A DNA stretch of 64,000 bases from Dehalococcoidia bacterium. Lineage in GTDB: Bacteria; Chloroflexota; Dehalococcoidia; UBA2979. Shown piece by piece: positions 1 to 16,350 of this stretch (the stretch's first letter is position 1; each line of letters starts with the position of its first letter). The stretch lies in NCBI GenBank assembly GCA_963667465.2, contig CAXXDN010000001.1:32001-96000 (forward strand), written 5' to 3'. Both the position numbers and the translations under genes were made by a program. The notes under the pieces were generated by a model. That model worked only from the letters and a program-made list of their open reading frames with translations, searched no databases and was not told the origin of the DNA.

Positions 1-626
<626 letters not shown>

Positions 627-627
<1 letters not shown>

Positions 628-2552
628 TGGCCTACTGGGGCAGCGGCCAGGTCGGCGGCTGGAGCGGCAACATGAGCGGCGTCCGCCACGGCCGCGCCGC
701 CGACGGCTGGGACTACGAGGAGCTGGGCCGCGTCTACGACCCCATACTCGTGCGGCGCATCGTGCCGATGCTCCGCCCCTACAAGCTGCAGGCCGCGATC
801 GCCGTCATCTCCATGTTGGTCTTCGCGATCGCCTCCTACGCGCAGCCCTACGTGATGGCAACCGCCACTGCATCGATCGTCGACAAGCTGCGCTCCGGGG
901 AGGCTGCCTCGCTGGCGGCGGTGGACGCGGAGATCGTCGAGTTCGGCCTGCTGCTCATCGGGCTCGCCATCATCTCCTTCATCTCTGCCGCGGTGCAGCG
1001 GCTGATGACGGGCTACGTTGGGCACCGCATCCTGCGCGACATGCGCAGCAACATGTTCGCGCACCTCAATCGCCTCTCGCTCAGCTTCTACGACCGCGAG
1101 GAGGTCGGGCGGATTATGTCGCGCGTCACCTCGGACGTGGTGACGCTGCAGGAGCTGATCACCACAGGCTTCCTCAACATCCTCGCGGACGCGGTGGGGC
1201 TGGCGCTGATCGTCGGCTTCCTGTTCTGGCTGGACCCGCTGCTGGCCGTGGTGGCGCTGTCCGTGATCCCGCTGCTGCTCGCCTTCATGGCCTGGTGGCA
1301 GACGCCCGCCGCGCGCGCCTTCATCCGCGTGCGACAGGCGATCTCGATCGTCAACGGGGCGATCAACGAGAACGTCTCCGGGGTCCGCATCGTGCAGTCC
1401 CTCAACCGCGAGGAAGAGAACCTCAAGCGCTTCGAGCTGCTCAACCGCCGTCACCGCGACGCCAACATGCAGGCCGTCCGGCTGCAGGCGAGCGTCATCC
1501 CCACCGTCGAGGTGCTCGCCACGATGGCCACCGGCATGGTGCTGATCGTGATCGGCATCCGCGTCTTCAACGGCAGCCTCGGCGCCGGCGAGGCGCTCGG
1601 CTTCACCGTTGGCTTCCTGCTCTACATCCAGCGCTTCTTCAACCCCGTCCGCGACATCGTCCTGCAGTACACGATGCTCCAGCGCGCCATGGCCGGCGCG
1701 CACCGCATCTTCGAGGTCCTCGACACCGAGCCGGAGATCGTCGATCCGCCGGACGCCGTCTCACTCCCCGATGTCGAGGGCCGCATCGACTTCAACAAGG
1801 TGGACTTCAGCTACGTCGAGGGCGTCCCGGTGCTGCGCGGCTTCGACCTGCAGATCGCGGCCGGCGAGACCGTCGCCTTCGTCGGCCACACCGGGGCGGG
1901 CAAGACGACGGTGACCGCCCTCGTCAACCGCTCCTACGACATCCAGGACGGCGAGATCCTGGTCGACGGGCACGACCTGCGGTCGATCGAGCGCGCCTCG
2001 CTGACGCGGCGCATGAGCGTCGTGCTGCAGGAGCCCTACCTCTTCTCCGGCACGATCGCCGACAACATCCGCTACGGCCGCCTCGACGCGACCGACGCGG
2101 AGATCGAGGAGGCCGCACGCGCGGTCGGCGCCAGCGAGTTCATCGAGCGACTGCCGGAGCGCTACGAGACGGAGCTGCACGAGCGCGGGCTCAACCTCTC
2201 GGTCGGGCAGCGTCAGCTGATCGCTTTCGCGCGCGCCGTCGTCGCCGAGCCGCGCATCCTGATCCTCGACGAGGCGACGGCAAACATCGACACGCACTCG
2301 GAGCGGCTGATTCAGCAGGCGCTGCGCACGATCCTGCGCGACCGCACCTCGCTGGTGATCGCCCACCGGCTCTCGACGATCCGCAGCGCCGACCGGATCG
2401 TGGTGATGCGCGACGGCGAGATCGTCGAGATCGGCCCGCACGAGGAACTGATGGTCCTCGACGGCGTGTACGCGGACCTCTACCGCATGACCTACCAGCA
2501 CTCCGAGGATGACGGCGCAGCGGTTGGGGAGGCGGCCGGGACCGAGGCCTAG
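627..2552 (+). CDS. ABC exporter permease/ATP-binding subunit (probable heterodimer partner of upstream gene)
   Basis: N-terminal TM domain, GHTGAGKT Walker A, LSVGQRQ, ILDEAT, IAHRL; start overlaps upstream stop (TAATG). Confidence 0.93.
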
Positions 2553-2615
2553 CGCGCTTCACCGTCTCCCTTACTATTGTCATACATACCGGTCGCACCG
2601 CGTGCATATGGCGTC

Positions 2616-2621
2616 TACAAT
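2616..2621 (+). promoter_or_regulatory. putative -10 box (TACAAT) upstream of ispH copy 1
   Basis: Near-consensus hexamer about 46 nt upstream of the ATG; a similar TACGAT lies upstream of copy 2. Confidence 0.4.
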
Positions 2622-2667
2622 GCCGTCGCGCCCGGATGGGACGAGGGGTTCGCGGGGACGCTCACGC

Positions 2668-3585
2668 ATGCCTCACACGCTGCTGCTCGCCGAGCCTCGA
2701 GGCTTTTGTGCGGGCGTGGTTCGCGCGATCGATGTCCTTGACGCGGTGCTCGACCGCGAGCCGCCGCCCGTCTACGTCTTCCACGAGATCGTGCACAACC
2801 GCCACGTCGTGGACGGCTTCCGCGCTCGCGGCGCCATCTTCGTCGACGAGCTCGCCGAGGTGCCCGCTGGCTCGCGCATCGTGTTCAGCGCGCACGGTGT
2901 CTCGCCCGCCGTCGTCGAGGAGGCAGAGCGCCGTCGCCTGCGCGTGATCGACACCACCTGCCCCCTGGTGACCAAGGTGCACCTCGAAACGAAGAACGCA
3001 GTCAAGCTCGGCTACGACGTACTCCTCGTCGGCCACCGCGGCCACGACGAGACCGTCGGCACCCACGGCGAGGCGCCCGATCGCACGCGGATCGTGGAAA
3101 TCGCCGGCGAGGTCGCCGCCATCGAGGTCGAGCGGCCCGTCTTCGTCGTCACGCAGACCACGTTGTCCGTCAACGACACGGCGGACGTCATCGGCGAGAT
3201 CCGCGACCGCTACCCCGACGCCGAGGTGCGCAGCGACATCTGCTACGCGACCACCAACCGCCAGTTCGCGGTGCGCAAGGTCGCCGAGCGCGCCGACCTC
3301 CTGCTCGTCGTCGGCTCGCGGAACTCGAGCAACTCCGTGCGTCTGCGCGAGGTCGCCGAGGACGCCGGCGTGACCGCCTACCGCGTCGACGGCCTCGACG
3401 AGATCGACCCCGCCTGGTACGAGGGCGTCGACGTCGTCGGTCTGACCTCAGGGGCCTCCGTGCCCGACGAACTGCTCGAACCGATCATCGAGGACCTCAA
3501 GGCCCGCGGTGTGACGCGCGTCGAGCCCGTCGTCGTCGCCGAGGAGAACGTCGAGTTCCGCCTGCCGCAAGGGCTGGAAGCGTAG
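2668..3585 (+). CDS. ispH: 4-hydroxy-3-methylbut-2-enyl diphosphate reductase, copy 1
   Basis: PRGFCAGV, EIVHN, SAHG, TCPLV, QTT, DICYAT, SSNS motifs. Confidence 0.96.
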   Translation: MPHTLLLAEPRGFCAGVVRAIDVLDAVLDREPPPVYVFHEIVHNRHVVDGFRARGAIFVDELAEVPAGSRIVFSAHGVSPAVVEEAERRRLRVIDTTCPLVTKVHLETKNAVKLGYDVLLVGHRGHDETVGTHGEAPDRTRIVEIAGEVAAIEVERPVFVVTQTTLSVNDTADVIGEIRDRYPDAEVRSDICYATTNRQFAVRKVAERADLLLVVGSRNSSNSVRLREVAEDAGVTAYRVDGLDEIDPAWYEGVDVVGLTSGASVPDELLEPIIEDLKARGVTRVEPVVVAEENVEFRLPQGLEA

Positions 3586-3601
3586 CGGCAGCCTCCGGAG
3601 T

Positions 3602-3640
3602 CCCTCTCACCCTAACCCTCTCCCGCCGGGGGAGAGGGGA
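3602..3640. repeat. REP-like palindromic element (ccctcacc-n-ccctctccc-loop-gggagaggg family)
   Basis: ctcaccctaaccctctcccgccgggggagagggg hairpin; related copies at about 5296, 5361, 5483, 45084 and 49712. Confidence 0.75.
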
Positions 3641-4098
3641 TCGGAAAGGGTCGCGCGAGCCGGGTCTCCACCTGCTACAGCACCAGCTGCTACAGCACCA
3701 GCTGCTACAGCACCAGGCGCTGATCCGGCGCTGGAGTTGGGTCCGACGATGGCATGCACGCCCTCATCCTCAATGAGGCGGCGAGCCTCCTCGGCAGGGT
3801 TGAGGGTGTCGCCTTCCGCGATTTCCACCTGTTGCCCGAACACGCCGCCGGCCTCGTTGACGTGCTTGATGGCCAGTTTGAAGGAGCGCAGGCGGTCGAG
3901 GGCCGTCTCCGTTTGCGCCTCGCTGTTCACCAGCAGCGCGCCGATCTTGAGGGGCGCCCGCTCTTCGTCGCCGCAGGCTGCGAGGGTCCCGGCGCCGATG
4001 GCCAGGGCGGCGATCACGACCAGCAGCACGCCCCGCAGCGCGCCGCCGGGGCTGCGCCAGCCGTCCAGCATGTCCTGCCACGCTTCCAGGTTCATCAT
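3607..4098 (-). pseudogene. truncated branched-chain amino acid ABC substrate-binding lipoprotein
   Basis: Lipobox LAAC, LKIGALL, AIKHVNEAGGVFGQQVE, VHAIVGPNSS; homology stops after about 125 aa and the frame runs into a tandem repeat and a REP element. Confidence 0.75.
3672..3716. repeat. 15-bp tandem repeat x3 (ctgctacagcaccag)
   Basis: Three exact copies read directly. Confidence 0.9.
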
Positions 4099-4520
4099 GA
4101 CCCTCGCTCGTTCATGACCACCGCCGCTCGCCGACAGGCCGCAAGGCTCAGCCTCAGGCCCGGGGCCAGCAACCGCTGTATCAGCTGCACATGCTGCATC
4201 GACAGGCCGGCCATGGGCACGCCCTCGTGGCCGGTCGGTGTACCGTACCGGATCTCCCGGTGCGGGTCAGGGAAGGACGTGCTCGTACAGGGATAACAGC
4301 GCCTGCACCATGTAGCCTGGGTAGGCGGGGTGACCGATGGTCGCGGCGATCTCCCCGTCGACAAGGTTCCTCTGAAGCCAGCCGCCGGAGTTGGTGACGC
4401 CTCCTCATGTCGGGATACCGGTGTCCTCCATACTCGGCTGAGTGCGGTAGGTCGGCGATCGTGAACCGGACCATAACCGCTGTCTTCGCAGGCGGCGGCG
4501 TGCATCGAGCCGAGGAGGCG

Positions 4521-4790
4521 TCAGGCGCGCCTCAGCAGCCGGCCATATTCGTCGTGTGGCCCAATCCAGAACCAGACGATGTCACCATCCTCAAGGATGC
4601 CCAAGGCGCGATAGTTCCTGCTCACACGCACCGAATACACCGGGCGCCGCTGCCCCACGCGCTTGAATTTGAGGCCCGGATGTTGCGGATCCAGCAGGAA
4701 GAACCGGTACGCGCCACGCGCCTGCTGCTTCACGGCGTCCGGGAGCCGGCGATAGGCGCTCCAGAAGCTCGGCAGCGTGTAGGAACGCAC
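4521..4790 (-). CDS. RelE/ParE-like toxin
   Basis: 89 aa; FWSAYRRLP...DPQHPGLKFKRV...YSVRVSRNYRALG...WFWIGPHDEY pattern. Confidence 0.8.
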   Translation of the reverse strand: MRSYTLPSFWSAYRRLPDAVKQQARGAYRFFLLDPQHPGLKFKRVGQRRPVYSVRVSRNYRALGILEDGDIVWFWIGPHDEYGRLLRRA

Positions 4791-4792
4791 GC

Positions 4793-5017
4793 TTAGAGGC
4801 GGCTCAGATCCAGAGGCTCCGTTTGCCCCGCCCGGTGAGCCTTGATCGCCTCGTCCGCCATCTGCTCCAGCATGTACTGCGACTCTGGGTGGTCTAGCAA
4901 GTCATCCCATTGCCGCTCTGCATCCAGCTCGGCAAGCAGGAACCGGGCGAACGCATTCTGCTCGTCTCGCGGCAGCGCCGCTGCCCTGTCGAACGCCTGT
5001 TGGAGAAGGTCGGTCAT
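4793..5017 (-). CDS. cognate antitoxin
   Basis: 74-aa acidic protein (MTDLLQQAF...W...LEQMADEA...GQTEPLD) directly upstream of the toxin. Confidence 0.75.
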   Translation of the reverse strand: MTDLLQQAFDRAAALPRDEQNAFARFLLAELDAERQWDDLLDHPESQYMLEQMADEAIKAHRAGQTEPLDLSRL

Positions 5018-5129
5018 GGGTACGATTCCGGGACTGCAGATTCTCAAGCCAGGTCGGCGCTCCGGGGGCGGCGTGGCGCCTCTCTGGGGGCTCTTCTCAC
5101 GCAGCTTACCACTTCACACGCCTCGAGCC

Positions 5130-5280
5130 GTGCTCCCTCGCCGTCGAGGGCGAGTTGCCCGAGGACGGGCTCGCCGCCTTCGGGGACGACGGCGACGACC
5201 TGCTGCTGGCGCTCGCGAACGGCAGCGCACGCTGTTCTCGTGGGCGGAGTTCATGACCGGGGAGCAGGACGAGCGGCCGC
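5130..5280 (+). pseudogene. C-terminal remnant of a large helicase-type gene of mobile origin
   Basis: Reads SLAVEGELPEDGLAAFGDDGDDLLLALA, then in a shifted frame QRTLFSWAEFM; no start codon; family recalled from memory. Confidence 0.4.
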
Positions 5281-5535
5281 GGCGCTGCGCGCCGACCCCT
5301 CACCCTCCGCCCTCTCCCGCAAGGGGCGAGGGGACCGGAGGCGTCCTCGGTCCTGTCCGGCCCCCTCTCCCGGGGGAGAGGGTTGGGGTGAGGGGGCGCG
5401 CCGGACCGGCGCCGATCTCGAAAGAGAGGTGCGCCGCCGCAGGCTCTTGGCCGGCGGGGGCGGGAGCGGCGCTGCGCGCCGACCCCTCACCCTCCGCGCT
5501 CTCTCGCAAGGAGAGAGGGGACCGGAGGCGTCCTC
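5281..5535. repeat. REP-like cluster: two ~68-bp direct repeats (5281-5348, 5468-5535) with an inverted copy between them (5361-5396)
   Basis: ggcgctgcgcgccgacccctcaccctccgc...gcaagg...gaggggaccggaggcgtcctc present twice. Confidence 0.85.
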
Positions 5536-5570
5536 TACTGGGGGAATGGGTGGTGCGGGTGGGAGGTCGG

Positions 5571-5610
5571 GCGGGGAGGGTGCGCCCCTGGTGAGGCGCA
5601 CCCTCCCCGC
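5571..5610 (-). terminator. 16-bp stem hairpin downstream of the large secreted protein gene
   Basis: gcggggagggtgcgcc-cctggtga-ggcgcaccctccccgc perfect inverted repeat 15 nt from the stop; no clear U-tract. Confidence 0.55.
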
Positions 5611-5625
5611 CTTCGTCCCGACGCC

Positions 5626-8600
5626 CTAGTCGCAGTTGACGAGGACGTACTCGCCCTTGCGGTCGTCGTTCTTGTTGGTCGTGCCGTCGTAGTAGTCGAG
5701 GTGTTCCGGCACGCCGGAGTGCTGACCAACAAGGATGCGGGCCCAGACCCTGATGTCTGTGGCGCCGCCGTCGCAGTCTTGATCGATGATCCTGGAGCCG
5801 AACCGGTCCAGGTCATTGGTGGCTTCGGCGTCAAACACGACTGCCCAGTTGTTCCATGCGCTGGACACGCTATCGGTGTCCAGTTGGATGGTCACGTCGG
5901 TCCATACCTTCTTGGCGAGGTAGACCCGCAGCCTGCCGTTCTCCTGTTGCGGGTGCAGGCTGAAGACGACGGCATCATCCTCGACGACCTTGAGGATCGG
6001 GTTCGCCCTGGTCGTGTTGGTCGAATGCTTCACCCGGAACTGGTAGTAGCGCTCGGGCTGGCCCACGAAGTTGTCGTCGTGGGACACGAACGTCAAATCA
6101 AAAAATTCCTGGCTATTGCCCCTATTCGCCCACCTGCCGGGGCCTCCGAAACAGTTGTACCCGCCGGGATCGAAGCATCCGACGAAACCGCCCGTGTAGA
6201 GGCGCCACTCGGACTCTTCCCTGATTGCCAGCGAGCGGTGGCCGACCTCTTGATCCAGATTCTTCCACGACGACCATTGGGTGCCGTCGTCATTCGTCGC
6301 CGTGCGCACCTCGAGCGCGACCCGTGGAGTGCCGCCCCGAGTGCCGGCGACGACTTTCAGTTCGAACTTGTCGCCTTCGGTGATCGTGGTGACGTTGCCA
6401 AGTGACGTGTTGGCAGTCTTCTGACCGCCCGCAGCCTCCACCCAGTAATTGTCGACGCTTCTGGTGTCGCTCGCCACCCAGCCGTTCGGATTGCCGGGGG
6501 AAGGGCCGGTGTCGGACATCGTGATCGTACTGACTTCGGTGGTGTGCACATCCGGGAGGTCCCAGCCGGCCCCGTCCGTCTCGTGCCAGACCAGCTTGAC
6601 CGTGCCTTGGCTCCCGTTGGAGCCGTCTGACTGCCAGTTCCACGAGACCTCGCAGGTGGCCGTCCGGTCATCCTGGTTCGCGCCCGCGTTTGCCTCCTTG
6701 TTGAAGGCGCAGACGCTGGGCTGCCAGTAGACAGCATGCCCGTGCTCCAGATGCATCCGCGCCGCCGAGGCTCTGCCGCCCTTTCGGATGTCCTCCATCC
6801 GCGGGGCGAGGTAGCCGGTCAGGTGCTCACCCGACAGGGTGATCGTCGCGGTGCCGCTGGTGCCTTCGGTGATGGTGAAGTCGCCGTTGGAGGTGGAGTG
6901 GCTGGTACCGTCGCCAGTGCTCATGGTGGTAGTGATGGTGGCGATGCTGTCCCGGAAGTGAATCAGCAGGATGTCGTAGGTGCCGACCACGGAGGTGCCG
7001 CTGGCGCCCATGTCGTGGTAGACCAGTTTGGCGCCGTTGAGGGTCGTGCCGGGCATGCTGTCGGCGGCGGGCAGGTTGTATGTGACACGGGCTTCACGGT
7101 AGTTCCTGTTGCTGTTCGTCAGGAAGCCGTTGGAGCAATTGGCGTCAGTCCAGCCTTGGGCGCTGGCATGCGGGCTGGTGGTGTTGCCGACGGTGCGCGC
7201 TATCCCCCCGGTGGGGATGGTGGCGCCGCCGGTCTGGGGCTCGATGGTGAGGTAGCCGCGCATCCGGCACGTGCTGCCGACATCATTCCTGTTGACCCAG
7301 ACGCGCACACTTATCGTGTTCGATGTGCCTTCCTCCAGCCTGATCTCAGGCTTGAAGTTATCGGCCGGACCACCCGGGCTGCTCGGATGGGGGCCGATGC
7401 TGCCGTTGTAGGCGAGCGCTGTTTGGGCAGCGACGCAGAACGTGCCATCAGACGACAGGCGCGAGCCCGGGTTGCAGGCGGCTTCGACGCTGGATGAGGC
7501 GCTGATGCTGTTCGTGCCGTCGCTGGCCTCGACGGTCATCGTGGCCGTCCCTGTGCCGGTGTTCTCGATCGAAATGAGCTCATCCCACTGGCTAATCGTG
7601 GCGATGGGGTTGTCGAGCGTCACCGTAAAGGTCAGCTCGGCGCCCGTCTCGTGGCCGAAGTAGTCGGTCAGCGTGAGCTGCGTCGGCTCGATGTTTGTGG
7701 ACATGTTGATGGACGTGGGCAACGGGTTGTCCAGCGTCGGCAGCGGCGCTGGCGGCGGACCGTTGTGGAAGATCCAATCCAGCGCCGGCGCGATCTCGTC
7801 CCAGATGTCGGTCGAGCGGGGTGCGGCCAGGCTGCGCGCTTTCGAGGCGGACAGCGGCTGAATCGACTGCTTCGCGACATCCTGCCCGAGCGCGAGCAGG
7901 ACAGAGTCGTAGAGGTCGGTGTGCGATGAGAACTGGCCATAAAGCTCGTGGTTGCGATACGCCTCCACCTTGGCGATCAGGTCCTGGTAGGGCGCCCAGA
8001 ACTCGGTGTAGGTCACGGGGGTTCCGGAGCCCGGCGCATCGTCGTCCGAGACGACCACGGTGGCCGCGCCCTGCGTCGCCGAGACGGTGAAGCGCGGGTT
8101 ATCGCGCGGGTCCGCCTGCAGCGTCAGTGTCAGCGAGCCATCGGGCTCGTCGCGGTCGTCACCCAGCGTGGGCACGGTGATCGTGGTGCTGCCGGACAGG
8201 CCAATCGAATCCACGTACTGGCCGTCGCTGGAGGTGAAGCGGCCGTCCTGCGTCACCACCGCGACGAAGGTGAGGGCGTTGGTGCCGGTCGGCGCGGGAG
8301 TGGCGGTCACGGTGAAGGTGGCAGCGCCGCCCTCGGTGATCGTGGGGCCGCCCACAACACTGAACTCAGGCAGGGAGTTCGTATTGGATGGAGTCGGTGG
8401 GGTCTGGGTGTCTGTGGTATCGGTGTCGGTATCGGTGTCGGTATCCGTGTCGGTGTCCTGCTGCTGCGAGTCGCCGTCGGTGGAGCCTTCGCACTGCTCC
8501 AGGGCTTCCAGGGTGCGCGCGGTGCGATCCCAGCGGGAGTTGTTGATCTGGTTCTTGATGCCCTGCGCCTGCGCCGCGGTCATGGCCGTTTCGCCGCTGC

Positions 8601-9870
8601 CGGTGTCCTCGCCCAAGGCCTCGAGCACCCGGTTCCAGCGCGATTGATGCGTGGCGGCGCTGTGCTCGTCGCGCCAGCCCGTGACCTCGCTCACGGTGAC
8701 GGCGTCGGCTGGCAGGGTGCAATCAGTGGACGTCTCCTGCGCTTCTGGTCCGGGATCAGGCGTCGGGGTCGGCGTTGGCGTTGGTGTTGGCGTCGGGGTC
8801 GGCAGCGGATAATCGTCGTCGGAGACGGCAGCCGTGGCCGCGCCCGCGCTCGACGACACGGTGTAGCCCGTGCCGCTCGCGAGCGTCGCCGTGACCGAGC
8901 CGTCGGGCTCGTCGGTTGCGTCGCCGCTCGTGCTGATCGTAAAGGACCTGGAGCCACTCGTGGGAATGGTGACGCTCTGTGAGCCGGTCGTGACGCCAAA
9001 GGCTCCCGTTGCGGACACCGTGACGCTCACGGTCAGCGCGGAGTGCGGCGTCGGGCTGGCGGTGATCGTGAAGCTGGCGTTGGCGCCTTCGATGACATCG
9101 CCGCCGGAGGCGATGCTCAGTTCGGGCACATCATCGTCCGCGACGGCAACCGTGGCCGCGCCCGAACTTGACGACACGGTGTAGCCCGTACCCGCGCCCA
9201 GCGTCGCCGTGACCGAGCCGTCGGGCTCGTCGGCGCTGTCGTTGGTCGTGGAGACGGTGAGCGTGTAACTGCCGGAGGCCGGGATCGTCACTGTCTGCGA
9301 ACCGGCCTGGGCGAAGTCGCCGCTCTGGGAGACGGTGACACTCACAGCGAGGTCGGAGGCGGGTGCGGGGCTGGCGGTGACGGTGAAGCTGGCGGCGGCG
9401 CCCTCGGTGACGCCCGAGCCTGCGGCGATGCTGATCTCAGGAGTGGGAGCAGGCGTGGGAGTCGGCGTGGGCGTCGGCGTTGGCGTCGGTGTGGGAGTCG
9501 GGGCGGCCTCGGCCGCCGCTTCGATGCACTCCAGCGCCTGCCGGATGGGCTTCCACCCTGACCAGCGCGCTTCCCGCGTGCGGGCCTCGGCGGCGGAGAA
9601 CGGCGTCAACTGCGAGTCCTCGACATCGCCGAAGGCGATCAGCACGCGCTTCCAGTTCAAGCCGGTGCGGCCCTGGGCCGTGTTGATGTCGTAGTAGAAG
9701 CGAACTCGCTCGAGCAGGGCGTCGCTCACGCAGCTCGACGCGTCCTGGGCGTTGGCGGTGGTCGTGGATGAAGCGCTGAACAGCAGCGTCGCCGCCATGA
9801 TCGCGAGCAGCGCGAGGCCAAACAGCGGCGCCCGCCAGCGGCGCGCTCTCATCGGGCGTCGCGCCCACAA
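5626..9870 (-). CDS. large secreted/surface repeat protein with Calx-beta/Ig-like domains (putative adhesin); true start probably 9904 across a poly-C tract
   Basis: Signal peptide ending ANA-Q, three EG...F-T-v-T-A-s-P...DEPDGS-v-T...ATV.V.DDD modules, three W-x-R-V-L-x-A-x-G-type helical modules, (PT)n and (TD)n linkers. Confidence 0.85.
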   Translation of the reverse strand: MWARRPMRARRWRAPLFGLALLAIMAATLLFSASSTTTANAQDASSCVSDALLERVRFYYDINTAQGRTGLNWKRVLIAFGDVEDSQLTPFSAAEARTREARWSGWKPIRQALECIEAAAEAAPTPTPTPTPTPTPTPTPAPTPEISIAAGSGVTEGAAASFTVTASPAPASDLAVSVTVSQSGDFAQAGSQTVTIPASGSYTLTVSTTNDSADEPDGSVTATLGAGTGYTVSSSSGAATVAVADDDVPELSIASGGDVIEGANASFTITASPTPHSALTVSVTVSATGAFGVTTGSQSVTIPTSGSRSFTISTSGDATDEPDGSVTATLASGTGYTVSSSAGAATAAVSDDDYPLPTPTPTPTPTPTPTPDPGPEAQETSTDCTLPADAVTVSEVTGWRDEHSAATHQSRWNRVLEALGEDTGSGETAMTAAQAQGIKNQINNSRWDRTARTLEALEQCEGSTDGDSQQQDTDTDTDTDTDTDTTDTQTPPTPSNTNSLPEFSVVGGPTITEGGAATFTVTATPAPTGTNALTFVAVVTQDGRFTSSDGQYVDSIGLSGSTTITVPTLGDDRDEPDGSLTLTLQADPRDNPRFTVSATQGAATVVVSDDDAPGSGTPVTYTEFWAPYQDLIAKVEAYRNHELYGQFSSHTDLYDSVLLALGQDVAKQSIQPLSASKARSLAAPRSTDIWDEIAPALDWIFHNGPPPAPLPTLDNPLPTSINMSTNIEPTQLTLTDYFGHETGAELTFTVTLDNPIATISQWDELISIENTGTGTATMTVEASDGTNSISASSSVEAACNPGSRLSSDGTFCVAAQTALAYNGSIGPHPSSPGGPADNFKPEIRLEEGTSNTISVRVWVNRNDVGSTCRMRGYLTIEPQTGGATIPTGGIARTVGNTTSPHASAQGWTDANCSNGFLTNSNRNYREARVTYNLPAADSMPGTTLNGAKLVYHDMGASGTSVVGTYDILLIHFRDSIATITTTMSTGDGTSHSTSNGDFTITEGTSGTATITLSGEHLTGYLAPRMEDIRKGGRASAARMHLEHGHAVYWQPSVCAFNKEANAGANQDDRTATCEVSWNWQSDGSNGSQGTVKLVWHETDGAGWDLPDVHTTEVSTITMSDTGPSPGNPNGWVASDTRSVDNYWVEAAGGQKTANTSLGNVTTITEGDKFELKVVAGTRGGTPRVALEVRTATNDDGTQWSSWKNLDQEVGHRSLAIREESEWRLYTGGFVGCFDPGGYNCFGGPGRWANRGNSQEFFDLTFVSHDDNFVGQPERYYQFRVKHSTNTTRANPILKVVEDDAVVFSLHPQQENGRLRVYLAKKVWTDVTIQLDTDSVSSAWNNWAVVFDAEATNDLDRFGSRIIDQDCDGGATDIRVWARILVGQHSGVPEHLDYYDGTTNKNDDRKGEYVLVNCD

Positions 9871-9878
9871 CGAACGTC

Positions 9879-9891
9879 GGGGGGGGGGGGG
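9879..9891 (-). repeat. G13/C13 homopolymer between the RBS-linked ATG (9904) and the large ORF
   Basis: 13 consecutive G on the + strand; GGAGG at 9915-9911 precedes ATG at 9904. Confidence 0.9.
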
Positions 9892-10115
9892 TCGCGTTGG
9901 TCATGCTTCGCCTCCAGTGGCAGGCCACTTACCCCGCGACCTGAGCCTGAGAAAGATCGTAACACGCAGATGCCTCTCGCCACATCCCACGCGCCCCCTC
10001 TCTCCGCCGATCGGCGGAGCCGCCGCCCTCGCGCAGCGGGGGTTGGCTGCGGGGCCCGTGCTACGATGACAGCGCGACCGGGTTTCAGTTGCGACCGGTC
10101 CCGGGTAGGGCCCGC

Positions 10116-11036
10116 ATGCCGCACACCCTCCTGCTTGCCGAGCCGCGCGGCTTCTGCGCCGGTGTCGTGCGCGCGATCGACATCCTCGACTCTGTGCTCG
10201 ACCGCGAGCCGCCGCCCGTCTACGCCTTCCACGAGATCGTGCACAACCGGCACGTCGTCGACGGCTTCCGCGCCCGCGGCGCGATCTTCGTCGACGCTGT
10301 CGCCGAGGTGCCCGAGGGCTCGCGCATCGTCTTCAGCGCCCACGGCGTCTCGCCCGCCGTGATCGACGAGGCGAAGCGCCGTCACCTGCGCATCATCGAC
10401 GCAACCTGCCCGCTGGTGACCCGTGTGCACCTCGAGACACGCAAGGCCGTCAGCGACGGCTACGACATCCTCCTCGTCGGCCATCGCGGCCACGACGAGA
10501 CCGCCGGCACGCTCGGCCAGGCGCCCGATCGCATGCGGATCGTCGAGGACGCCGGCGAGGTCGCCAGGATCGACCCCGGCGAGCGCCCGGTGTTCGTCGT
10601 CACGCAGACCACGCTCTCAATGGACGACACGGCGAGCACCATCGACGGGATCCGGGCCGTCTACCCCGACGCCGAGGTACGCAACGACATCTGCTACGCC
10701 ACCACCAACCGCCAGCTCGCCGTGCGCGCGATCGCCGAGCGGGCCGACTTGCTGCTCGTCGTCGGCTCGGCAAACTCGAGCAACTCCGTGCGGCTGCGCG
10801 AGGTTGCCGAGGCCGCCGGCGTGACCGCCTACCGGATCGACGGGATCGAGGAGATCGACCCCGCCTGGTACGAGGGTGTCGCTGTCGTGGGCCTCACCGC
10901 GGGGGCCTCTGTCCCCGACGAGCTCCTCAACCCGATCATCGAGGATCTGAAGGCGCGGGGCGTCTCCCGGATCGAGCCCGTCGTCGTCGCCGAGGAGACC
11001 GTGGAGTTTCGGCTGCCGGACGAGCTTGAGGTGTAG
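10116..11036 (+). CDS. ispH: 4-hydroxy-3-methylbut-2-enyl diphosphate reductase, copy 2
   Basis: Same motifs as copy 1; all three Fe-S cysteines retained. Confidence 0.96.
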   Translation: MPHTLLLAEPRGFCAGVVRAIDILDSVLDREPPPVYAFHEIVHNRHVVDGFRARGAIFVDAVAEVPEGSRIVFSAHGVSPAVIDEAKRRHLRIIDATCPLVTRVHLETRKAVSDGYDILLVGHRGHDETAGTLGQAPDRMRIVEDAGEVARIDPGERPVFVVTQTTLSMDDTASTIDGIRAVYPDAEVRNDICYATTNRQLAVRAIAERADLLLVVGSANSSNSVRLREVAEAAGVTAYRIDGIEEIDPAWYEGVAVVGLTAGASVPDELLNPIIEDLKARGVSRIEPVVVAEETVEFRLPDELEV

Positions 11037-11041
11037 CGGAC

Positions 11042-11266
11042 ATGACCTGGGAGAGTTGCGCCGCGGTTGAGCGCCGTCTGGACACCCTCAGCGGGGCATG
11101 GGTGTTCCGCGGTACTCGCGTACCCGTCTCCACGCTCTTCGAGAACCTCAAGGATGGCGCCTCGACGGAGGAGTTCCTGGAGTGGTTCCCCGGCGTCGAG
11201 CGGAGCCACGTGGAGGCTGTCCTCGACCATGAAGTCGAGGGGTTGGCCGGCCCGATTCGTTCGTGA
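11042..11266 (+). CDS. DUF433 family antitoxin
   Basis: SGAWVFRGTRVPV..LFENL..G.S.EEFLEWFPGV. Confidence 0.88.
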   Translation: MTWESCAAVERRLDTLSGAWVFRGTRVPVSTLFENLKDGASTEEFLEWFPGVERSHVEAVLDHEVEGLAGPIRS

Positions 11267-11580
11267 GGATCCTGTTCGACCAGGGTGTACCCGCACCACT
11301 CCGCCAGGGCCTTCCCGGGCATGTGGTCGAGACCGCATTCGAGCGCGGCTGGTCCGACCTGCGCAACAGCGTGTTGCTTCAACGAGCGGAGGATGAGGGC
11401 TACGCGCTTCTGATCACGACCGACCAGAGCCTTCGGCACCAACAGAATCTCGCCGGGAGGAACCTCGGGGTTTTGGTATTGCTCTCAACCTCGTGGCCGC
11501 GCATCCAGTTGCGGGCAGACGACATCAAGGCCGTCGTCGATGTAATGGGCACGGGAGACATTCAGGAGATCAGCATCTGA
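11263..11580 (+). CDS. PIN-like (DUF5615/VapC45-type) toxin
   Basis: MRILFDQGVP...GW...N..LL..AE...LITTDQ.L..QQNL; GTGA overlap with the DUF433 gene. Confidence 0.85.
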   Translation: MRILFDQGVPAPLRQGLPGHVVETAFERGWSDLRNSVLLQRAEDEGYALLITTDQSLRHQQNLAGRNLGVLVLLSTSWPRIQLRADDIKAVVDVMGTGDIQEISI

Positions 11581-11651
11581 AGTGAGTTCGACGACAACCG
11601 CTCGTCGTCGGCTCGGCAACGGTCACCCGGAACATCGCGAGGAAGGGTCAC
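11562..11651 (-). pseudogene. HicA-type toxin N-terminal remnant
   Basis: GTG overlapping the antitoxin stop reads MTLPRDVPGD (HicA-like start), then degenerates and stops after 29 codons. Confidence 0.5.
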
Positions 11652-11860
11652 GCCGGAATGAGTTCGTCTCGCACCAGCTGGAGCCGGATCGCGCGAGGCC
11701 GATCGGGGTCGTCCTCGTCGAAGTGGGTACGAACGGCGTCGCGCGTCATCACGCGGAGTTCTTCGAAGGTGTCGGCCTCGGTGAAAATCGAGTACCCGAG
11801 CGCGCGGGCGGTGTAGCCGCCCTCCGGCGCTTCCTCGACCTCGAAGATGATCTCGCTCAT
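11648..11860 (-). CDS. small HicB-like antitoxin
   Basis: EIIFEVEEAPEGGYTARALGYSIFTEADT.EEL...RDAV..HF; RBS and TATACT upstream. Confidence 0.8.
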   Translation of the reverse strand: MSEIIFEVEEAPEGGYTARALGYSIFTEADTFEELRVMTRDAVRTHFDEDDPDRPRAIRLQLVRDELIPA

Positions 11861-11878
11861 CGGTCTCCCTGCCCCGAG

Positions 11879-11884
11879 AGTATA
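11879..11884 (-). promoter_or_regulatory. putative -10 box TATACT for the HicB-like gene
   Basis: agtata on + strand, 18 nt before the ATG. Confidence 0.5.
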
Positions 11885-12066
11885 GCGCGGCCCCGGGCGC
11901 TTCCGGGATCTTCGCCGTGGCGGTCAGCCTCACGGGGCGCCGCTCGTCGACGTTGTCCATTGCCACGAGCGACTCGGAGACGAGCGTCACTGGCCGGCCC
12001 GGTCTAGAGTGATCGCCGTCCAGCTCGCCTGCGCCGGCGAGCGTCGGAAGGAAGAGAGCAGTCAGG

Positions 12067-13128
12067 ATGAGATCACGAGCCGCGATCCTGACGAGCGCCG
12101 ACGCGCCGATCCGCATCGAGGAAGTGGAGCTCGGCGACCCGGCGCCGGGCGACGTGCTCGTGCGGATGTCCGCGACCGGTGTCTGCCACTCCGACCTGCA
12201 CTACCTGCGCGGCTACCGCGAGGTGACGGCCCCGACACTGCTGGGCCACGAGGGCACGGGCGAGGTCATCGCCGTCGGCGAGGGCGTCTCGCACCTCGTG
12301 CCCGGTGATCGCATCGTCACCTCGCTTGTGCCGCGAGACGGCGATCCCGCCGGCTCGGGCACGCCGTGGTCGGACAGCTCGGTGACATGGCGCGGCGAGG
12401 AACTCGACGGCCACAAGAACAACATCTACACGTGGGCCGAGCACGCGCTGCTCAACGCCGAGTTCATGGTGAAGGTGCCGGCCGACACGCCTCTGGACGT
12501 GGTCGCGCCCCTCGGCTGCGGCGCGCTCACGGGCGCCGGGACGGTGCTCAACGCGCTGGACGCGCAGCCGGGCCGATCGGGCGCCGTGTTCGGCGCCGGC
12601 GGCGTCGGCCTCTCGGCCATCGCCGCGCTGCGCGTGCGAGGCTGCGACCCGATCATCGCCGTCGACCTCTCGGACGAGAAGCTCGAGTTCGCGCGCCGCT
12701 TCGGGGCGACCGAGGTCGTCAACGCCAGCGAGGGAGACCCGGCCAGGCTGGTCCGCGAGCTGAGCGGCGGCGGTGTCGACTACGCGATCGACGCGATCGG
12801 CGCGCGCGGGACCACGGAGCAGATCGTCAAGGCGGTGAAGCGCCGCCGTGGCGCCGAGCGCGGGGGCACCGCCGCGATGCTCGCCACCGGCAACATGGTG
12901 CGCGTGCCGACCGGCGAGATGGTCACGGGTCAGAAGTCGCTGATCGGCGTCCTGCTCGGCTCTGCCGTGCCGGAGCGCGACGTGCCCGAGCTCCTGCGCT
13001 GGCACCGCGAGGGCATGTTCGACCTCGACGCGCTCGTGACGGAGCGCTATGCGCTCGACGAGATCAACGAGGCGACAAGCCGGCTCGATCGCGGCGAGGT
13101 CTTCGGCCGCGGCATCGTCGTCTTCTAG
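12067..13128 (+). CDS. Zn-dependent alcohol dehydrogenase family protein
   Basis: GVCHSD, GHEG, LGCG, GAGGVG; lacks the structural-Zn four-Cys loop. Confidence 0.92.
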   Translation: MRSRAAILTSADAPIRIEEVELGDPAPGDVLVRMSATGVCHSDLHYLRGYREVTAPTLLGHEGTGEVIAVGEGVSHLVPGDRIVTSLVPRDGDPAGSGTPWSDSSVTWRGEELDGHKNNIYTWAEHALLNAEFMVKVPADTPLDVVAPLGCGALTGAGTVLNALDAQPGRSGAVFGAGGVGLSAIAALRVRGCDPIIAVDLSDEKLEFARRFGATEVVNASEGDPARLVRELSGGGVDYAIDAIGARGTTEQIVKAVKRRRGAERGGTAAMLATGNMVRVPTGEMVTGQKSLIGVLLGSAVPERDVPELLRWHREGMFDLDALVTERYALDEINEATSRLDRGEVFGRGIVVF

Positions 13129-13529
13129 CCCCCCGCCGGCGGCGGCGCGACGCGCACCGAGGCGCGGGTCACCTCGGTACCGTTGATCACGAGGTGGAAC
13201 GAGTGATCGCCGTAGGCGGGGAAGTTCACGCCGACGAGGTTCACCAGCACGCGCGCCGTGCCGCTCGTGCCGCCGCTCACCGGCGGCAACGGCATCTCGC
13301 CCTGGATGCGATCGATGATCTGCTGGCCGTCGGCGTCGTAGCCGCTGACCTCGAGGCGGTGCGAGCCCGCCTCGGCGACCGAGTAGCGGATCTGCGCGAC
13401 CATCGTGAGCAGCGGGTGGCGGGTCGGCACATCGGCGGCGTGGATCGTGTCCACGCCGATGCCGAGCGCGTGCAGCTTCCCGCCGGACTCCTCGGCGAAG
13501 TCGCTGAGGAAGGCGAACTCCAGGTCCAT
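13125..13529 (-). CDS. conserved hypothetical beta-sandwich protein (DUF6941-like)
   Basis: MDLEFAFLSDFAEESGGKLHALGIG...FPAYGDHSFHLVING; AAGGA RBS; last gene of the PDH operon. Confidence 0.7.
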   Translation of the reverse strand: MDLEFAFLSDFAEESGGKLHALGIGVDTIHAADVPTRHPLLTMVAQIRYSVAEAGSHRLEVSGYDADGQQIIDRIQGEMPLPPVSGGTSGTARVLVNLVGVNFPAYGDHSFHLVINGTEVTRASVRVAPPPAGG

Positions 13530-13534
13530 CGTCG

Positions 13535-14971
13535 TCAGTTCCTTTCGTGGCCGCGCCGCCGCCCGATGTAGTCGGGACTGCGGCCATAGAAGGCGGCGGC
13601 GGCGTTCATCAGCGTCTCGCCGAGCGTGGGGTGCGGGTGGATGGTCAGCTCGAGGTCCTGCACCACGGCCCCCATCTCGATCGCCAGAGCGGCCTCCGAG
13701 ATCAGGTCGCCCGCCCCCACGCCGACGATGCCCACGCCGAGCACCCGATCGGTGTGCGGCTCGACGACGAGCTTGGTCGCGCCGTCGGTGCGGCCCAGCG
13801 TCGTCGCGCGGCCGGAGGCGGCCCACGGCAGCGTCGCGGTCTGCACCTCGATGCGCTGGTCCGCCGCCTCCGTCTCGGTCAGCCCGACCCAGGCGATCTC
13901 CGGGTCCGTGTAGACCACCGCAGGGATCACGCGCGCGTCCCAGACCAGCGGCCTCCCCGCGATCGCCTCGACGGCGACGCTGGCCTCGTGCGTGGCCTTG
14001 TGCGCGAGCATCGGCTCCCCCGCCACGTCGCCGATCGCGAAGATCGCCGGGTCCGCGCTGCGGCGCTGCATGTCCACCTCGACGAAGCCGCGCGCGTCGA
14101 GCTTCGCGCCTGTTTGCGCCAGGCCGAGGCCGGCGCTGTTCGGGCGGCGCCCGACGGCGACCAGCACCTGCTCGAACAGCTCCTCCGTGGGCTCGCCGTC
14201 GGAGCCGCCGAGGCGGCCCAGCACGCCGCCCTCCGCCTCCTCCATCGAGAGCACTGTCGTCTCCAGCCGGATCGCCTCGAAGTTGCGCCGCAGGCGGCGC
14301 TGCAATGTGCGCACGAGGTCGCGATCGACGCCGGGCAGCAGCCCGTTCGTCATCTCGACGACGGTGACGCGAGCGCCGAGCGCAGCGTAGACGCTGCCGA
14401 GCTCGAGCCCGATGTAGCCGCCGCCGATGACGAGCAGCGTCGCCGGCACGCGCTCCAGCTCCAGCGCCGAGGTGGAATCCAGCACCAGCGGCGAGTCCAG
14501 CGCGAGGCTCGGGACCGTCGCCGGGACGGAGCCGGTTGCGACGATCGCGTACTCGAAGCCAATCGTGCGCGGCTCGCCCTCGGCCGGGGTCACCTCGACG
14601 GAGCGCGGGCCGTTGAAGCGGGCGCGCCCGCTCACGAACTCGACGCCGTGCTGCTTCGTCAGCTGGCCGAGCCCGCCGGTCAGGCGGTTGACCACGCCCT
14701 GCTTCCACTGCCGCAACCTGTCGAGGTCGATCGAGGGCGGCCCGTAGCTGACGCCCCAGTCCTCGGCCTGCTTCGCCTCCTCGAGCTGCGCGGCGACGTG
14801 CAGCAGCGCCTTGGAGGGGATGCAGCCGCGGTAGAGACAGACGCCGCCGGGGTTCGGCGCGTCGTCGATCAGCGTGACCTTCATCCCCATGTCGGCCGCG
14901 AGGAACGCCGCCGGGTAGCCCCCCGGCCCCCCGCCGATCACGACCAGATCGCTGCCGCCGTCAGCCACCAT
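13535..14971 (-). CDS. lpdA: dihydrolipoyl dehydrogenase (E3)
   Basis: GGGPGG, GGVCLYRGCIPSK, GGGYIG, HPHPTLGE. Confidence 0.96.
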   Translation of the reverse strand: MVADGGSDLVVIGGGPGGYPAAFLAADMGMKVTLIDDAPNPGGVCLYRGCIPSKALLHVAAQLEEAKQAEDWGVSYGPPSIDLDRLRQWKQGVVNRLTGGLGQLTKQHGVEFVSGRARFNGPRSVEVTPAEGEPRTIGFEYAIVATGSVPATVPSLALDSPLVLDSTSALELERVPATLLVIGGGYIGLELGSVYAALGARVTVVEMTNGLLPGVDRDLVRTLQRRLRRNFEAIRLETTVLSMEEAEGGVLGRLGGSDGEPTEELFEQVLVAVGRRPNSAGLGLAQTGAKLDARGFVEVDMQRRSADPAIFAIGDVAGEPMLAHKATHEASVAVEAIAGRPLVWDARVIPAVVYTDPEIAWVGLTETEAADQRIEVQTATLPWAASGRATTLGRTDGATKLVVEPHTDRVLGVGIVGVGAGDLISEAALAIEMGAVVQDLELTIHPHPTLGETLMNAAAAFYGRSPDYIGRRRGHERN

Positions 14972-16350
14972 CAGCCCTCCGATCCTGGCTCGGTCTCCGG
15001 GAACTCCTCGAGCATGTAGGGCCGCGGCTGTTCCAGTGTCTCGCAGATCCAGGCGAGGGCGCGCGCACCGTCGGCGCCGTCGATCAGCCGGTGGTCGAAG
15101 TTGATCGCCAGCGGCATGCGCAGCCGCGGCTCGAACTCGCTGCCGGTCCAGACCGGCTCCTGCTCCGCCCTCCCGACGGCGAGGATCCCGACCTGCGGCG
15201 GCAGCAGCACGGCGTTGAAGAAGCCGATCCCCATCCCCCCGAGGTTCGAGATCGTGAACGTCCCGCCTCGCAGGTCCTCGAGCGTGCTCTTGCGATCGCG
15301 CGCCCGCCCGATCAGCTCGCCGATCTCGATTGAGAGCTCGGTAATGCTCTTCTCGTCGGCGTTGCGTACGACGGGGACGATCAGGCCGTGGTCCGTGTCC
15401 GTTGCGACGCCGACGTGGACGTAGCGGCGGTAGACGATCTCCTCGCTCGCCACGTCGATCGAGGCGTTGAGCCGCGGGAACTCGCGCAGCGCCCCGGCGA
15501 CGACCTTCATCAGGATCGGCATCATCGTCAGCTGGCCGCCGGCGGCGGCGATGCGCTCGCGGTTGGCGCGGCGGATCGCCTCGAGCTCGGTGACGTCGGC
15601 CTTGCGCTGCAGCATCACGTGCGGGCTCTGCGACCAGGACTGGCTGAGCGTGCGCGCGGTCGTGCGCCGCACGCCGCTCATCCGCTCGCGGTCGACCTCG
15701 CCGAACTGCGAGAGGTCGGGCAGCGCGGTGGGCGGGGGCGCGGCGCCCCGTCGCGGCGCCTCGGGCGCACCGGGCGTGGCCGCCGCAGTCGCCTCGCTAC
15801 GCATCACCCGGGCGTGCGCCTTCACATCGTCGATCGAGACGCGCCCGCCCGGACCGCTGCCCGTCACCTCGCCGAGCGCCACGCCGATCTCGCGCGCGAA
15901 CATCCGCACCGAGGGCGAGGCGGGCACGAGGCCGCCGTCGGAAGGCAGCACGGGCGTAGCCGCTGCCGCTGGTCTCGCGGATGCGGCGGCGGGAGGCGCC
16001 GGGGCCGGTGTGGTCGGTGTGGGGGGAGGCGGCGGCGCAGCCGGCTCGCTGGCGGGTGGCGCGCTCGCGGCGGGCGCCTGTGGCGCGGCCGGCGAGGACG
16101 GCTTGACGCCCTCCTCGGCCTCGATCGCGACGATCGCCTGCCCCGGGCGGATCGTGTCGCCGACGCTGACATGGACGGCGGTGATCGCCCCCGCGTAGGG
16201 CGCGGGCACGTCGAGGTTCGCCTTCTCCGTCTCGACCTCGATCACGGGCGCGTCGCGCTCGACGCGGTCGCCCGCGTGGACGTGCACCGCGATCACCTCG
16301 GCCTCTTCGATGTCCTCGCCGAGGTCGGGCAGCAGATAGTCCGTGGCCAT
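14971..16350 (-). CDS. aceF: pyruvate dehydrogenase E2 acetyltransferase
   Basis: Single lipoyl domain ETEKA, Pro/Ala linker, ASPSVR E3-binding domain, DHRLIDG. Confidence 0.92.
   Translation of the reverse strand: MATDYLLPDLGEDIEEAEVIAVHVHAGDRVERDAPVIEVETEKANLDVPAPYAGAITAVHVSVGDTIRPGQAIVAIEAEEGVKPSSPAAPQAPAASAPPASEPAAPPPPPTPTTPAPAPPAAASARPAAAATPVLPSDGGLVPASPSVRMFAREIGVALGEVTGSGPGGRVSIDDVKAHARVMRSEATAAATPGAPEAPRRGAAPPPTALPDLSQFGEVDRERMSGVRRTTARTLSQSWSQSPHVMLQRKADVTELEAIRRANRERIAAAGGQLTMMPILMKVVAGALREFPRLNASIDVASEEIVYRRYVHVGVATDTDHGLIVPVVRNADEKSITELSIEIGELIGRARDRKSTLEDLRGGTFTISNLGGMGIGFFNAVLLPPQVGILAVGRAEQEPVWTGSEFEPRLRMPLAINFDHRLIDGADGARALAWICETLEQPRPYMLEEFPETEPGSEG

Follow-up and report, generated by a model that had tools for sequence, protein, structure and literature searches.

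A poly-C tract in the leader of a Calx-beta-like repeat protein gene: a candidate contingency switch in Chloroflexota

Layout of the locus

A stretch of 64,000 nucleotides (nt) from a Dehalococcoidia bacterium (contig CAXXDN010000001.1, positions 32,001 to 96,000), numbered here from its first letter and referred to as the window, carries on its minus strand an open reading frame (ORF) of 1414 codons for a predicted secreted repeat protein. Between this ORF and an ATG with its own Shine-Dalgarno sequence lies a run of 13 cytosines (C13). Comparison with related loci indicates that this run is a candidate hypermutable contingency switch, a role that the comparison supports well; how often the run slips, which start codon is used, how expression responds and what biological role results are all inferred. 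The features on which the argument turns are given below; L001 and L002 are two orthologous loci described in the next section.

9915-9911, minus strand: Shine-Dalgarno sequence GGAGG, separated from ATG 9904 by the 6-nt spacer cgaagc; invariant in L001 and L002.
9904-9902, minus strand: upstream ATG, followed by ACCAACGCGA before the tract; ATG-ACC-AAC is kept in L001 and L002.
9891-9879, minus strand: poly-C tract C13 (G13 on the plus strand), the proposed hypermutable element, followed by GACGTTCG and then TTG 9870.
9852-9849, minus strand: ATGA, made up of the internal in-frame ATG (9852-9850) and a TGA in the third frame (9851-9849); the same ATGA occurs in L002.
9437..9904, minus strand: frame read from ATG 9904 with C13, 155 codons, crossing ATG 9852 out of frame.
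5626..9870, minus strand: ORF of the secreted repeat protein, 1414 codons (about 4.2 kilobases, kb), listed from TTG 9870, with its stop codon at 5626-5628.
9748..9852, minus strand: signal-peptide-like segment MRARRWRAPLFGLALLAIMAATLLFSASSTTTANA, identified by eye, with likely cleavage between ANA and QD; it aligns with the N-termini of the related proteins P0006 and P0005.

From ATG 9904 to TTG 9870 the distance is 3+10+13+8 = 34 nt, that is, one base off frame, and ATG 9904 would match the frame of the ORF with C12 or C15. The original prediction had read this layout in the same way, and its arithmetic is correct. It had further described the tract as the only long homopolymer in the window, which holds: no other homopolymer exceeds 6 nt, the next-longest runs of C or G measure 6 nt (6 and 7 cases), and at a window GC content of 70% a first-order Markov model predicts about 0.001 runs of at least 13 nt for G and about 0.0015 for C in 64 kb. 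The tract is also longer than the roughly 8 nt taken as enough for frequent G/C slippage. Likewise, the in-frame ATG 9852, located 18 nt inside the long frame, is present as described; the 14 nt that precede it (gggcgcgacgcccg) contain nothing resembling GGAGG.

On its upstream side, the frame of the main ORF is shut by a TGA (9903-9901) that overlaps ATG 9904. The competing out-of-frame ORF is listed as 9437..9928 on the minus strand (163 amino acids, aa); GC content at third codon positions is 0.86 in the long frame and 0.66 when reading begins at ATG 9904. A start of the form GGAGG-spacer-ATG also opens a Pfam-confirmed E2 acyltransferase gene at 16350, which shows that the organism uses such starts.

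Conservation and length variation among orthologues

A scan of genome contigs, with alignment of the N-terminal regions, yielded 36 related loci, and the orthologue set consists of three DNA loci (the window, L001 and L002) and one protein, P0006. L001 and L002 both come from Tepidiformaceae (Chloroflexota). L001 aligns to the window over 10017-5550 with 82% DNA identity and L002 over 10025-5541 with 85%, so that the aligned part comprises the gene and about 120-150 nt upstream; the flanks of both loci have no match to the window outside approximately 5541-10025. The ORFs are intact in all three (1414-1415 codons), with a synonymous divergence (dS) of 0.24-0.30 and a ratio of nonsynonymous to synonymous divergence (dN/dS) of 0.53-0.59.

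The string GGAGGCGAAGCATGACCAAC upstream of the tract is identical in the window, L001 and L002. At the orthologous position, the tract itself is C18 in L001 and C9+AA in L002, versus C13 in the window, and in both relatives the upstream ATG matches the frame of the long ORF, giving leaders that begin MTNATPPPPPRHSLWARRWRAPLFG... and MTNTTPPQRRSFWARRPMRARRWRAPLFG..., respectively. The orthologues, to which the original prediction had looked for a check, thus combine variable tract length with invariant flanks, the pattern that marks a slipped-strand contingency locus in sequence comparisons. In L001, moreover, a loss of 18 nt has removed the internal ATG; besides the upstream ATG, the sole in-frame start left there before the hydrophobic core is a TTG right behind the tract. 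The fourth relative, P0006, is the closest protein on record and was called from the internal methionine, the equivalent of ATG 9852. It was also the only protein returned (1 of 599 candidates) when the N-terminal 75 residues of the in-frame L001 protein served as query in a second homology search.

A modular, Calx-beta-like repeat protein

Read by eye, the N-terminus encoded from ATG 9852 has a charged N-region, a hydrophobic core and the ANA-QD cleavage site, and it looks like an ordinary signal peptide. Sequence searches with the window protein found little else. Pfam gave nothing above cut-off, the only match being CBM_4_9 at 18.2 bits (cut-off 25.9), and a sequence search of the PDB reached a best E of 0.012. 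The Pfam Calx-beta profile (PF03160) did not match P0001 even at E up to 5, and it scored P0002 below threshold (12.4 bits, cut-off 27).

The structural models are more informative for the N-terminal part. An AlphaFold2 model of residues 40-250 (mean predicted local distance difference test score, pLDDT, 79) comprises a four-helix domain followed by a beta-sandwich, the latter with scores of 81-93 per 10-residue block. Foldseek places this sandwich on the Calx-beta/CBD1 structures 2dpk, 3gin and 3e9t in the PDB, with E between 1.4e-6 and 1.7e-6 and target TM-scores of 0.66-0.72. The four-helix N-terminal domain recurs in three diverged copies along the protein, and the Calx-beta-like sandwiches are joined by PT/DT linkers. 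For the C-terminal 725 aa, an AlphaFold2 model built on a 10-row alignment was unusable (mean pLDDT 38) and beta-rich only at low confidence; the best ESM Atlas score, 0.81, leads to bacterial Ig or cadherin-like clusters and is a lead only. As modelled, the protein is a secreted, modular, Calx-beta-like repeat protein, with secretion judged from the N-terminus by eye, and a role as an adhesin would be plausible.

The linkers carry simple repeats of their own. In-frame tandem repeats of 6 nt and 12 nt at 8416-8457, 8759-8803 and 9438-9513 encode PT and DT linkers, and as a second simple-repeat class they could vary the length of these linkers.

Poly-C tracts across the gene family

The tract is not peculiar to the window gene. 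All C or G runs of at least 9 nt were tallied in the 36 related loci and the window (n=25). Of these runs, 21 directly precede open frames of 293-1533 aa, and two more (L003 minus strand and L015) have, no more than about 30 nt downstream, an ATG and the signal-peptide-like MRLPQWRLPLLGL..., bringing to 23 of 25 the runs that head signal-peptide-like ORFs. The 23 headed ORFs come from at least 9 genomes, their tracts measure 9-38 nt, and C is on the sense strand in 23 of 23. The remaining two runs, at L007 5315-5330 (C16) and L024 1690-1699 (G10), have no long ORF behind them; in L007 a disrupted PKRLRP-like leader comes after the C16 run, which may be what is left of a gene.

Several leader types surround the tracts, namely those of the window, of L003, and of the MRLPQW and PKRLRP families, together with the single loci L013, L018, L025 and L019-. 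Since the leaders differ around it, the tract has been kept or gained in several contexts. Within the L003 family, eight paralogues carry tracts of C10 to C18. Genomes can hold several such loci: at least six tracts were found in OZ219805.1 (Dehalococcoidia) and at least six in a second genome (OZ219765.1 with OZ219764.1), with one in the window.

L020 and L021, two contigs of one metagenome-assembled genome (MAG), align over 8940 nt with 0 mismatches and differ by C17 versus C18 and by one 12-nt indel. The difference is either real heterogeneity or consensus error; whichever the cause, no other string of bases in these 9 kb is less stable than the tract. Protein records point the same way. 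Runs of 5-9 consecutive prolines occur in the first 60 residues of 16 of 120 homologous proteins, at 2.2 per 1000 aa versus 0.6 elsewhere in the same 120 proteins, and their length differs among close relatives (6 in P0034, 5 in P0072, 9 in P0083).

That the window gene is a recently inactivated pseudogene with a functionless tract might be suspected, as its best start is out of frame with C13, and it is extremely improbable in light of these comparisons. The intact 1414-codon frame and its dN/dS relative to the orthologues argue that the gene is not decaying, and chance decay would not yield the same tract position in 23 of 25 cases.

The family itself is large. A protein database search returned 1783 proteins at E <=0.001 among 7994 scored candidates, and the source names, given for a few of the entries, include Candidatus Poriferisodalis and Poriferisocius. 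The related loci lie in MAGs of Tepidiformaceae, Dehalococcoidia, Acidimicrobiia/Acidimicrobiales and Aldehydirespiratoraceae. Across the Tepidiformaceae, Dehalococcoidia and Acidimicrobiales loci (L001-L011 and L013), the C-terminal 725 aa are 68-76% identical, with no match in L008, which makes the family common to two phyla, Chloroflexota and Actinomycetota. Over this region the Tepidiformaceae orthologue L001 (68%) is no closer than an Acidimicrobiales locus (72%), and the identities suggest exchange between phyla.

Three individual observations complete the survey. The longest tract, C38 at L018 4558-4595 in an Aldehydirespiratoraceae MAG, is in frame and encodes 13 consecutive prolines before the signal peptide. 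L008 (5840-6050) has only TCCCCG at the tract position and may be a 'locked' copy without a switch. Finally, the L003-family loci L003, L004, L007, L009, L010 and L011 share a conserved run of A8 (A9 in L007) at approximately 5682-5693, some 260 nt ahead of the C tract.

Reading frames and the choice of start codon

Among the 21 tracts that head long ORFs, 13 are in frame with at least one ATG within 70 nt upstream, six are out of frame with the upstream ATGs (the window, L001b, L003, L005, L011 and L019+), and two have no ATG within that distance (L002b and L025). In L013, L018 and L019- there is no in-frame ATG, GTG or TTG between the tract and the charged N-region, and L001 was added to this group; in all four loci without a usable start behind the tract, the upstream ATG is in frame, which speaks for translation of these tracts into polyproline and for a frame that matters.

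The original prediction had taken the window to show the gene in its OFF state. This claim, and no other, is touched by the possibility that the tract is real and unstable and that C13 is a consensus miscall or one sampled variant, with most cells carrying C12 or C15 and being ON. Long homopolymers are the chief residual indel error in long-read consensus sequences. This reading is somewhat unlikely here: both orthologues are in frame and the single C that separates L020 from L021 indicates that one-base differences arise easily, for biological or technical reasons, but the window has no other sign of indels (no other run above 6 nt and an unbroken 4.2-kb ORF), and with six of 21 family loci out of frame, an out-of-frame consensus is not unusual. 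The part of PMC12817950 that was available contained nothing on long-read homopolymer bias.

Whether the tract could act on transcription depends on where the promoter lies, and here one further feature is relevant.

9956..9964, minus strand: extended -10-like element TGTTACGAT, identified by eye, with ATG 9904 about 50 nt downstream.

The element is kept as TGTTATGAT in L001 and TGTTAGAAT in L002, with the motif TGTTAnnAT in all three; from this we infer a promoter that would put the tract within the transcript. A scan of 9700-10200 for consensus promoters and terminators found 0 and 0 sites. Searches for RNA features gave no other candidate: the leader RNA (9950-9840, minus strand) folds at -43.7 kcal/mol with z = -0.21 relative to shuffled sequences, which indicates no structured element; an Rfam search of 3500-12000 at E up to 1 returned two chance-level matches, none at the tract; and a search of 1-14000 found no transfer RNA (tRNA).

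It is very improbable that the tract serves as a promoter spacer whose length would set the distance from an activator site or -35 element to the -10 element and hence the rate of transcription. Tracts of 10-22 C upstream of cell-envelope genes act in this way in a GC-rich bacterium, according to the available part of PMC1891110, and the tract of L025 stops 4 nt before its ATG, a position that would suit such a role. The arrangement in the window family speaks otherwise, with no TAnnnT -10-like hexamer visible by eye between tract and starts in the window, L003-family, MRLPQW-family and L019+ leaders, with the conserved -10-like motif and the conserved Shine-Dalgarno-ATG pair both upstream of the tract, and with a promoter scan that is empty on either side of it.

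A different question is whether ATG 9852 or TTG 9870, both behind the tract, always serves as the start of translation. In that case the tract would belong to a 5' leader or upstream ORF, and its length would have an indirect influence on expression or none. Such an influence might come from the position at which the leader ORF ends (coupling at AUGA versus overlap), from polyproline stalling that depends on elongation factor P (EF-P), or from loading of Rho on ribosome-free poly-C. Runs of proline stall ribosomes, and poly(C) is the classic activator of Rho. In four leader types one wrong frame stops on the main start itself, with AUGA in the window, L002, the L003 family and L019+ and UGAUG in the MRLPQW family; the MRLPQW family, moreover, has ATGs before the tract in all three frames. 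These arrangements fit a downstream start, as does the calling of P0006 from its internal methionine. Such a start is nevertheless unlikely to be the general rule for the window gene, because ATG 9852 has no Shine-Dalgarno sequence and ATG 9904 has a perfect, conserved one, because L001 has lost the internal ATG with its upstream ATG still in frame, and because of the four in-frame loci without a usable downstream start.

Several observations weigh against translation through the tract and against the window's tract length as read, and they temper the interpretation that follows. The few differences between the leader peptides are all non-synonymous, and no purifying selection on the peptide sequence is evident. 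ATG 9852 yields a signal peptide of textbook length, and the closest recorded protein was called there. In several paralogues the tract falls outside the main coding sequence: a stop separates tract and ATG in L015; L019+, L001b, the MRLPQW family and the L020 family carry a Shine-Dalgarno motif (GGAGG or AGGTGG) plus an ATG downstream of the tract; and the tract of L025 ends just short of the ATG, as noted above. The eight loci of the L003 family are spread about equally over the frame states (two with the -22 ATG, three with the -59 ATG and three with none), a pattern also to be expected of a tract that lies in an untranslated leader. The presence of the tract in the transcript is deduced from a -10-like motif read by eye, next to the empty promoter scan. 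Lastly, the C13 length is that of the assembly consensus and may differ from the true or main length.

The original prediction of a contingency locus thus stands in part. The tract is non-random and well placed, and its length varies among orthologues, among paralogues and between L020 and L021; the OFF state, ATG 9904 as the sole productive start and the adhesin role are candidate readings, and in some paralogues the tract lies outside the main ORF.

A proposed model for the candidate switch

Building on the observed anatomy, conservation, length polymorphism and frames, the C13 run is probably a hypermutable tract in a transcribed and translated 5' leader, whose length would set the expression of the secreted Calx-beta-like repeat protein. 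In this model, slipped-strand mispairing at replication would add or remove C residues. Ribosomes would load at the strong, conserved GGAGG-N6-ATG 9904, and tract length modulo 3 would then determine one of three outcomes. With C12, C15 or C18, ATG 9904 would be joined to the ORF, placing a proline-rich and arginine-rich N-region before the signal peptide, and the gene would be ON, as in L001 and L002. With C13, as in the window, ribosomes would translate 155 codons out of frame past the weak internal ATG 9852, and expression would be OFF or low. With C14 or C11, the leader frame would stop at the TGA on ATG 9852 (AUGA), and termination followed by reinitiation could give an intermediate level. 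The gene belongs to a large family in which the C tracts differ in length from copy to copy, so that the surface proteins on display would vary within a population.

Extended to the whole family, the model becomes more tentative. It is possible, though not the likelier outcome, that probably sponge-associated Chloroflexota (Tepidiformaceae and Dehalococcoidia) and Actinomycetota (Acidimicrobiia) hold giant Calx-beta-like surface genes that are each gated by their own 9-38-nt sense-strand poly-C in a translated three-state leader. The three states would be in-frame fusion, a stop on the main start (AUGA or UGAUG) with reinitiation, and overrun of the start; polyproline stalling and the loading of Rho on naked poly-C might add further layers.

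Relation to known systems

Poly-G/C tracts of the Neisseria type measure about 8-14 nt, whereas those described here measure 9-38 nt and are always sense-strand C. Intragenic poly-G/C contingency loci have been described in Neisseria (hmbR, nalP and mspA of N. meningitidis), Haemophilus and Campylobacter (PMC3786947, PMC3723659, PMC8355987). The present loci resemble them in a G/C homopolymer at the 5' end of a putative surface gene, in frame shifts predicted from its length, and in the presence of many such loci per genome. They differ in that the tracts sit in a leader preceding the signal peptide and in many cases have another start downstream, and in that they occur in uncultured Chloroflexota and Actinomycetota instead of proteobacterial pathogens.

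The closest non-pathogen parallel appears to be Bifidobacterium breve, whose sortase-dependent pilus genes are switched by replication slippage in a G tract, as measured by maximum-depth sequencing and in mice (PMC9187656). B. breve, too, is a GC-rich, host-associated non-pathogen with an intragenic G/C tract in a surface-structure gene; its reference sequence is in the OFF frame, with a range of lengths in the population (PMC9187656). Unlike in B. breve, the present case concerns another protein class, includes an internal alternative start and draws on comparative genomics.

Two other systems share parts of this arrangement. The promoters of Bordetella fim2, fim3 and fimX contain a C-stretch of 10-22 nt whose length varies between strains and species (PMC1891110), and as in the window a long poly-C precedes envelope-protein genes in a GC-rich genome. 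Unlike the fim promoter spacer, which acts on transcription, the tract described here lies downstream of a conserved Shine-Dalgarno-ATG pair. In Listeria monocytogenes, a 5' poly(A) tract in inlA acts as a reversible frame switch, part of a general 5' bias of homopolymers (PMC2831843); there, too, the homopolymer lies a few codons past the start of a surface-protein gene. That study dealt with A/T tracts some 7 nt long in genomes of low GC content, whereas the present tract is poly-C in a 70% GC genome.

As to the protein, Poriferisodalaceae and Aldehydirespiratoraceae are sponge-symbiont families enriched in Calx-beta proteins (PMC11706023). The present family resembles these 'eukaryote-like' proteins of sponge-symbiont Actinobacteriota in that relatives come from Poriferisodalis, Poriferisocius and Aldehydirespiratoraceae and in that its repeat module folds like CBD1 in the model; it differs in that the window protein has no Pfam Calx-beta match. 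The available part of PMC11706023 makes no mention of homopolymers or phase variation. A literature search covering titles and the openings of abstracts found no report of phase variation or homopolymers in Chloroflexota, Dehalococcoidia, Acidimicrobiia or sponge symbionts, and a literature search on 'Poriferisodalis' found nothing. Mechanisms of this kind are known already; what appears new is the lineage concerned and the recurrence of the pattern through a whole gene family.

Genomic neighbourhood

Downstream of the ORF lies one further feature of the gene itself.

5570..5611, minus strand: perfect 17-bp inverted repeat, about 15 nt past the stop codon, a possible terminator stem.

The surface-protein gene belongs to a stretch of about 6.5 kb that is bracketed by two LytB/IspH paralogues on the plus strand, at 2509-3585 and 10089-11036 (Pfam E 1.9e-87 and 1.1e-88). 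The stretch lacks synteny with the orthologous loci and may therefore have been inserted between two gene duplicates. Just downstream of the large gene, the minus-strand ORFs at 4521-4790 and 4793-5047, one with a ParE-like toxin domain (E 2.6e-9) and a small Pfam-less ORF before it, are probably a toxin-antitoxin pair. At 3607-4098 (minus strand) lies a 163-aa fragment of a periplasmic binding protein that matches the first 84 or so of the 343 positions of the Peripla_BP_6 profile, and the DNA at 3728-4294 is 94% identical to L002 2095-2661, versus 85% for the large gene. A 76-nt direct repeat (92% identical) occurs downstream of the gene at 5273-5348 and 5460-5535, and L001 and L002 contain two to five copies of pieces of 5132-5285, with 84-93% identity; together these repeats may represent a small dispersed repeat element.

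Significance

Homopolymer contingency loci are textbook knowledge for a few cultured pathogens and commensals. If the tracts described here do switch, symbionts would vary large 'eukaryote-like' surface proteins stochastically, which bears on their persistence in a filter-feeding host. In that case, too, genome annotation in these lineages would systematically give such genes wrong starts or break them up. If true, the family would constitute a mutualist counterpart of the contingency loci of pathogens, providing cell-to-cell diversity of the bacterial surface inside an animal host, for instance against phagocytosis or phages.

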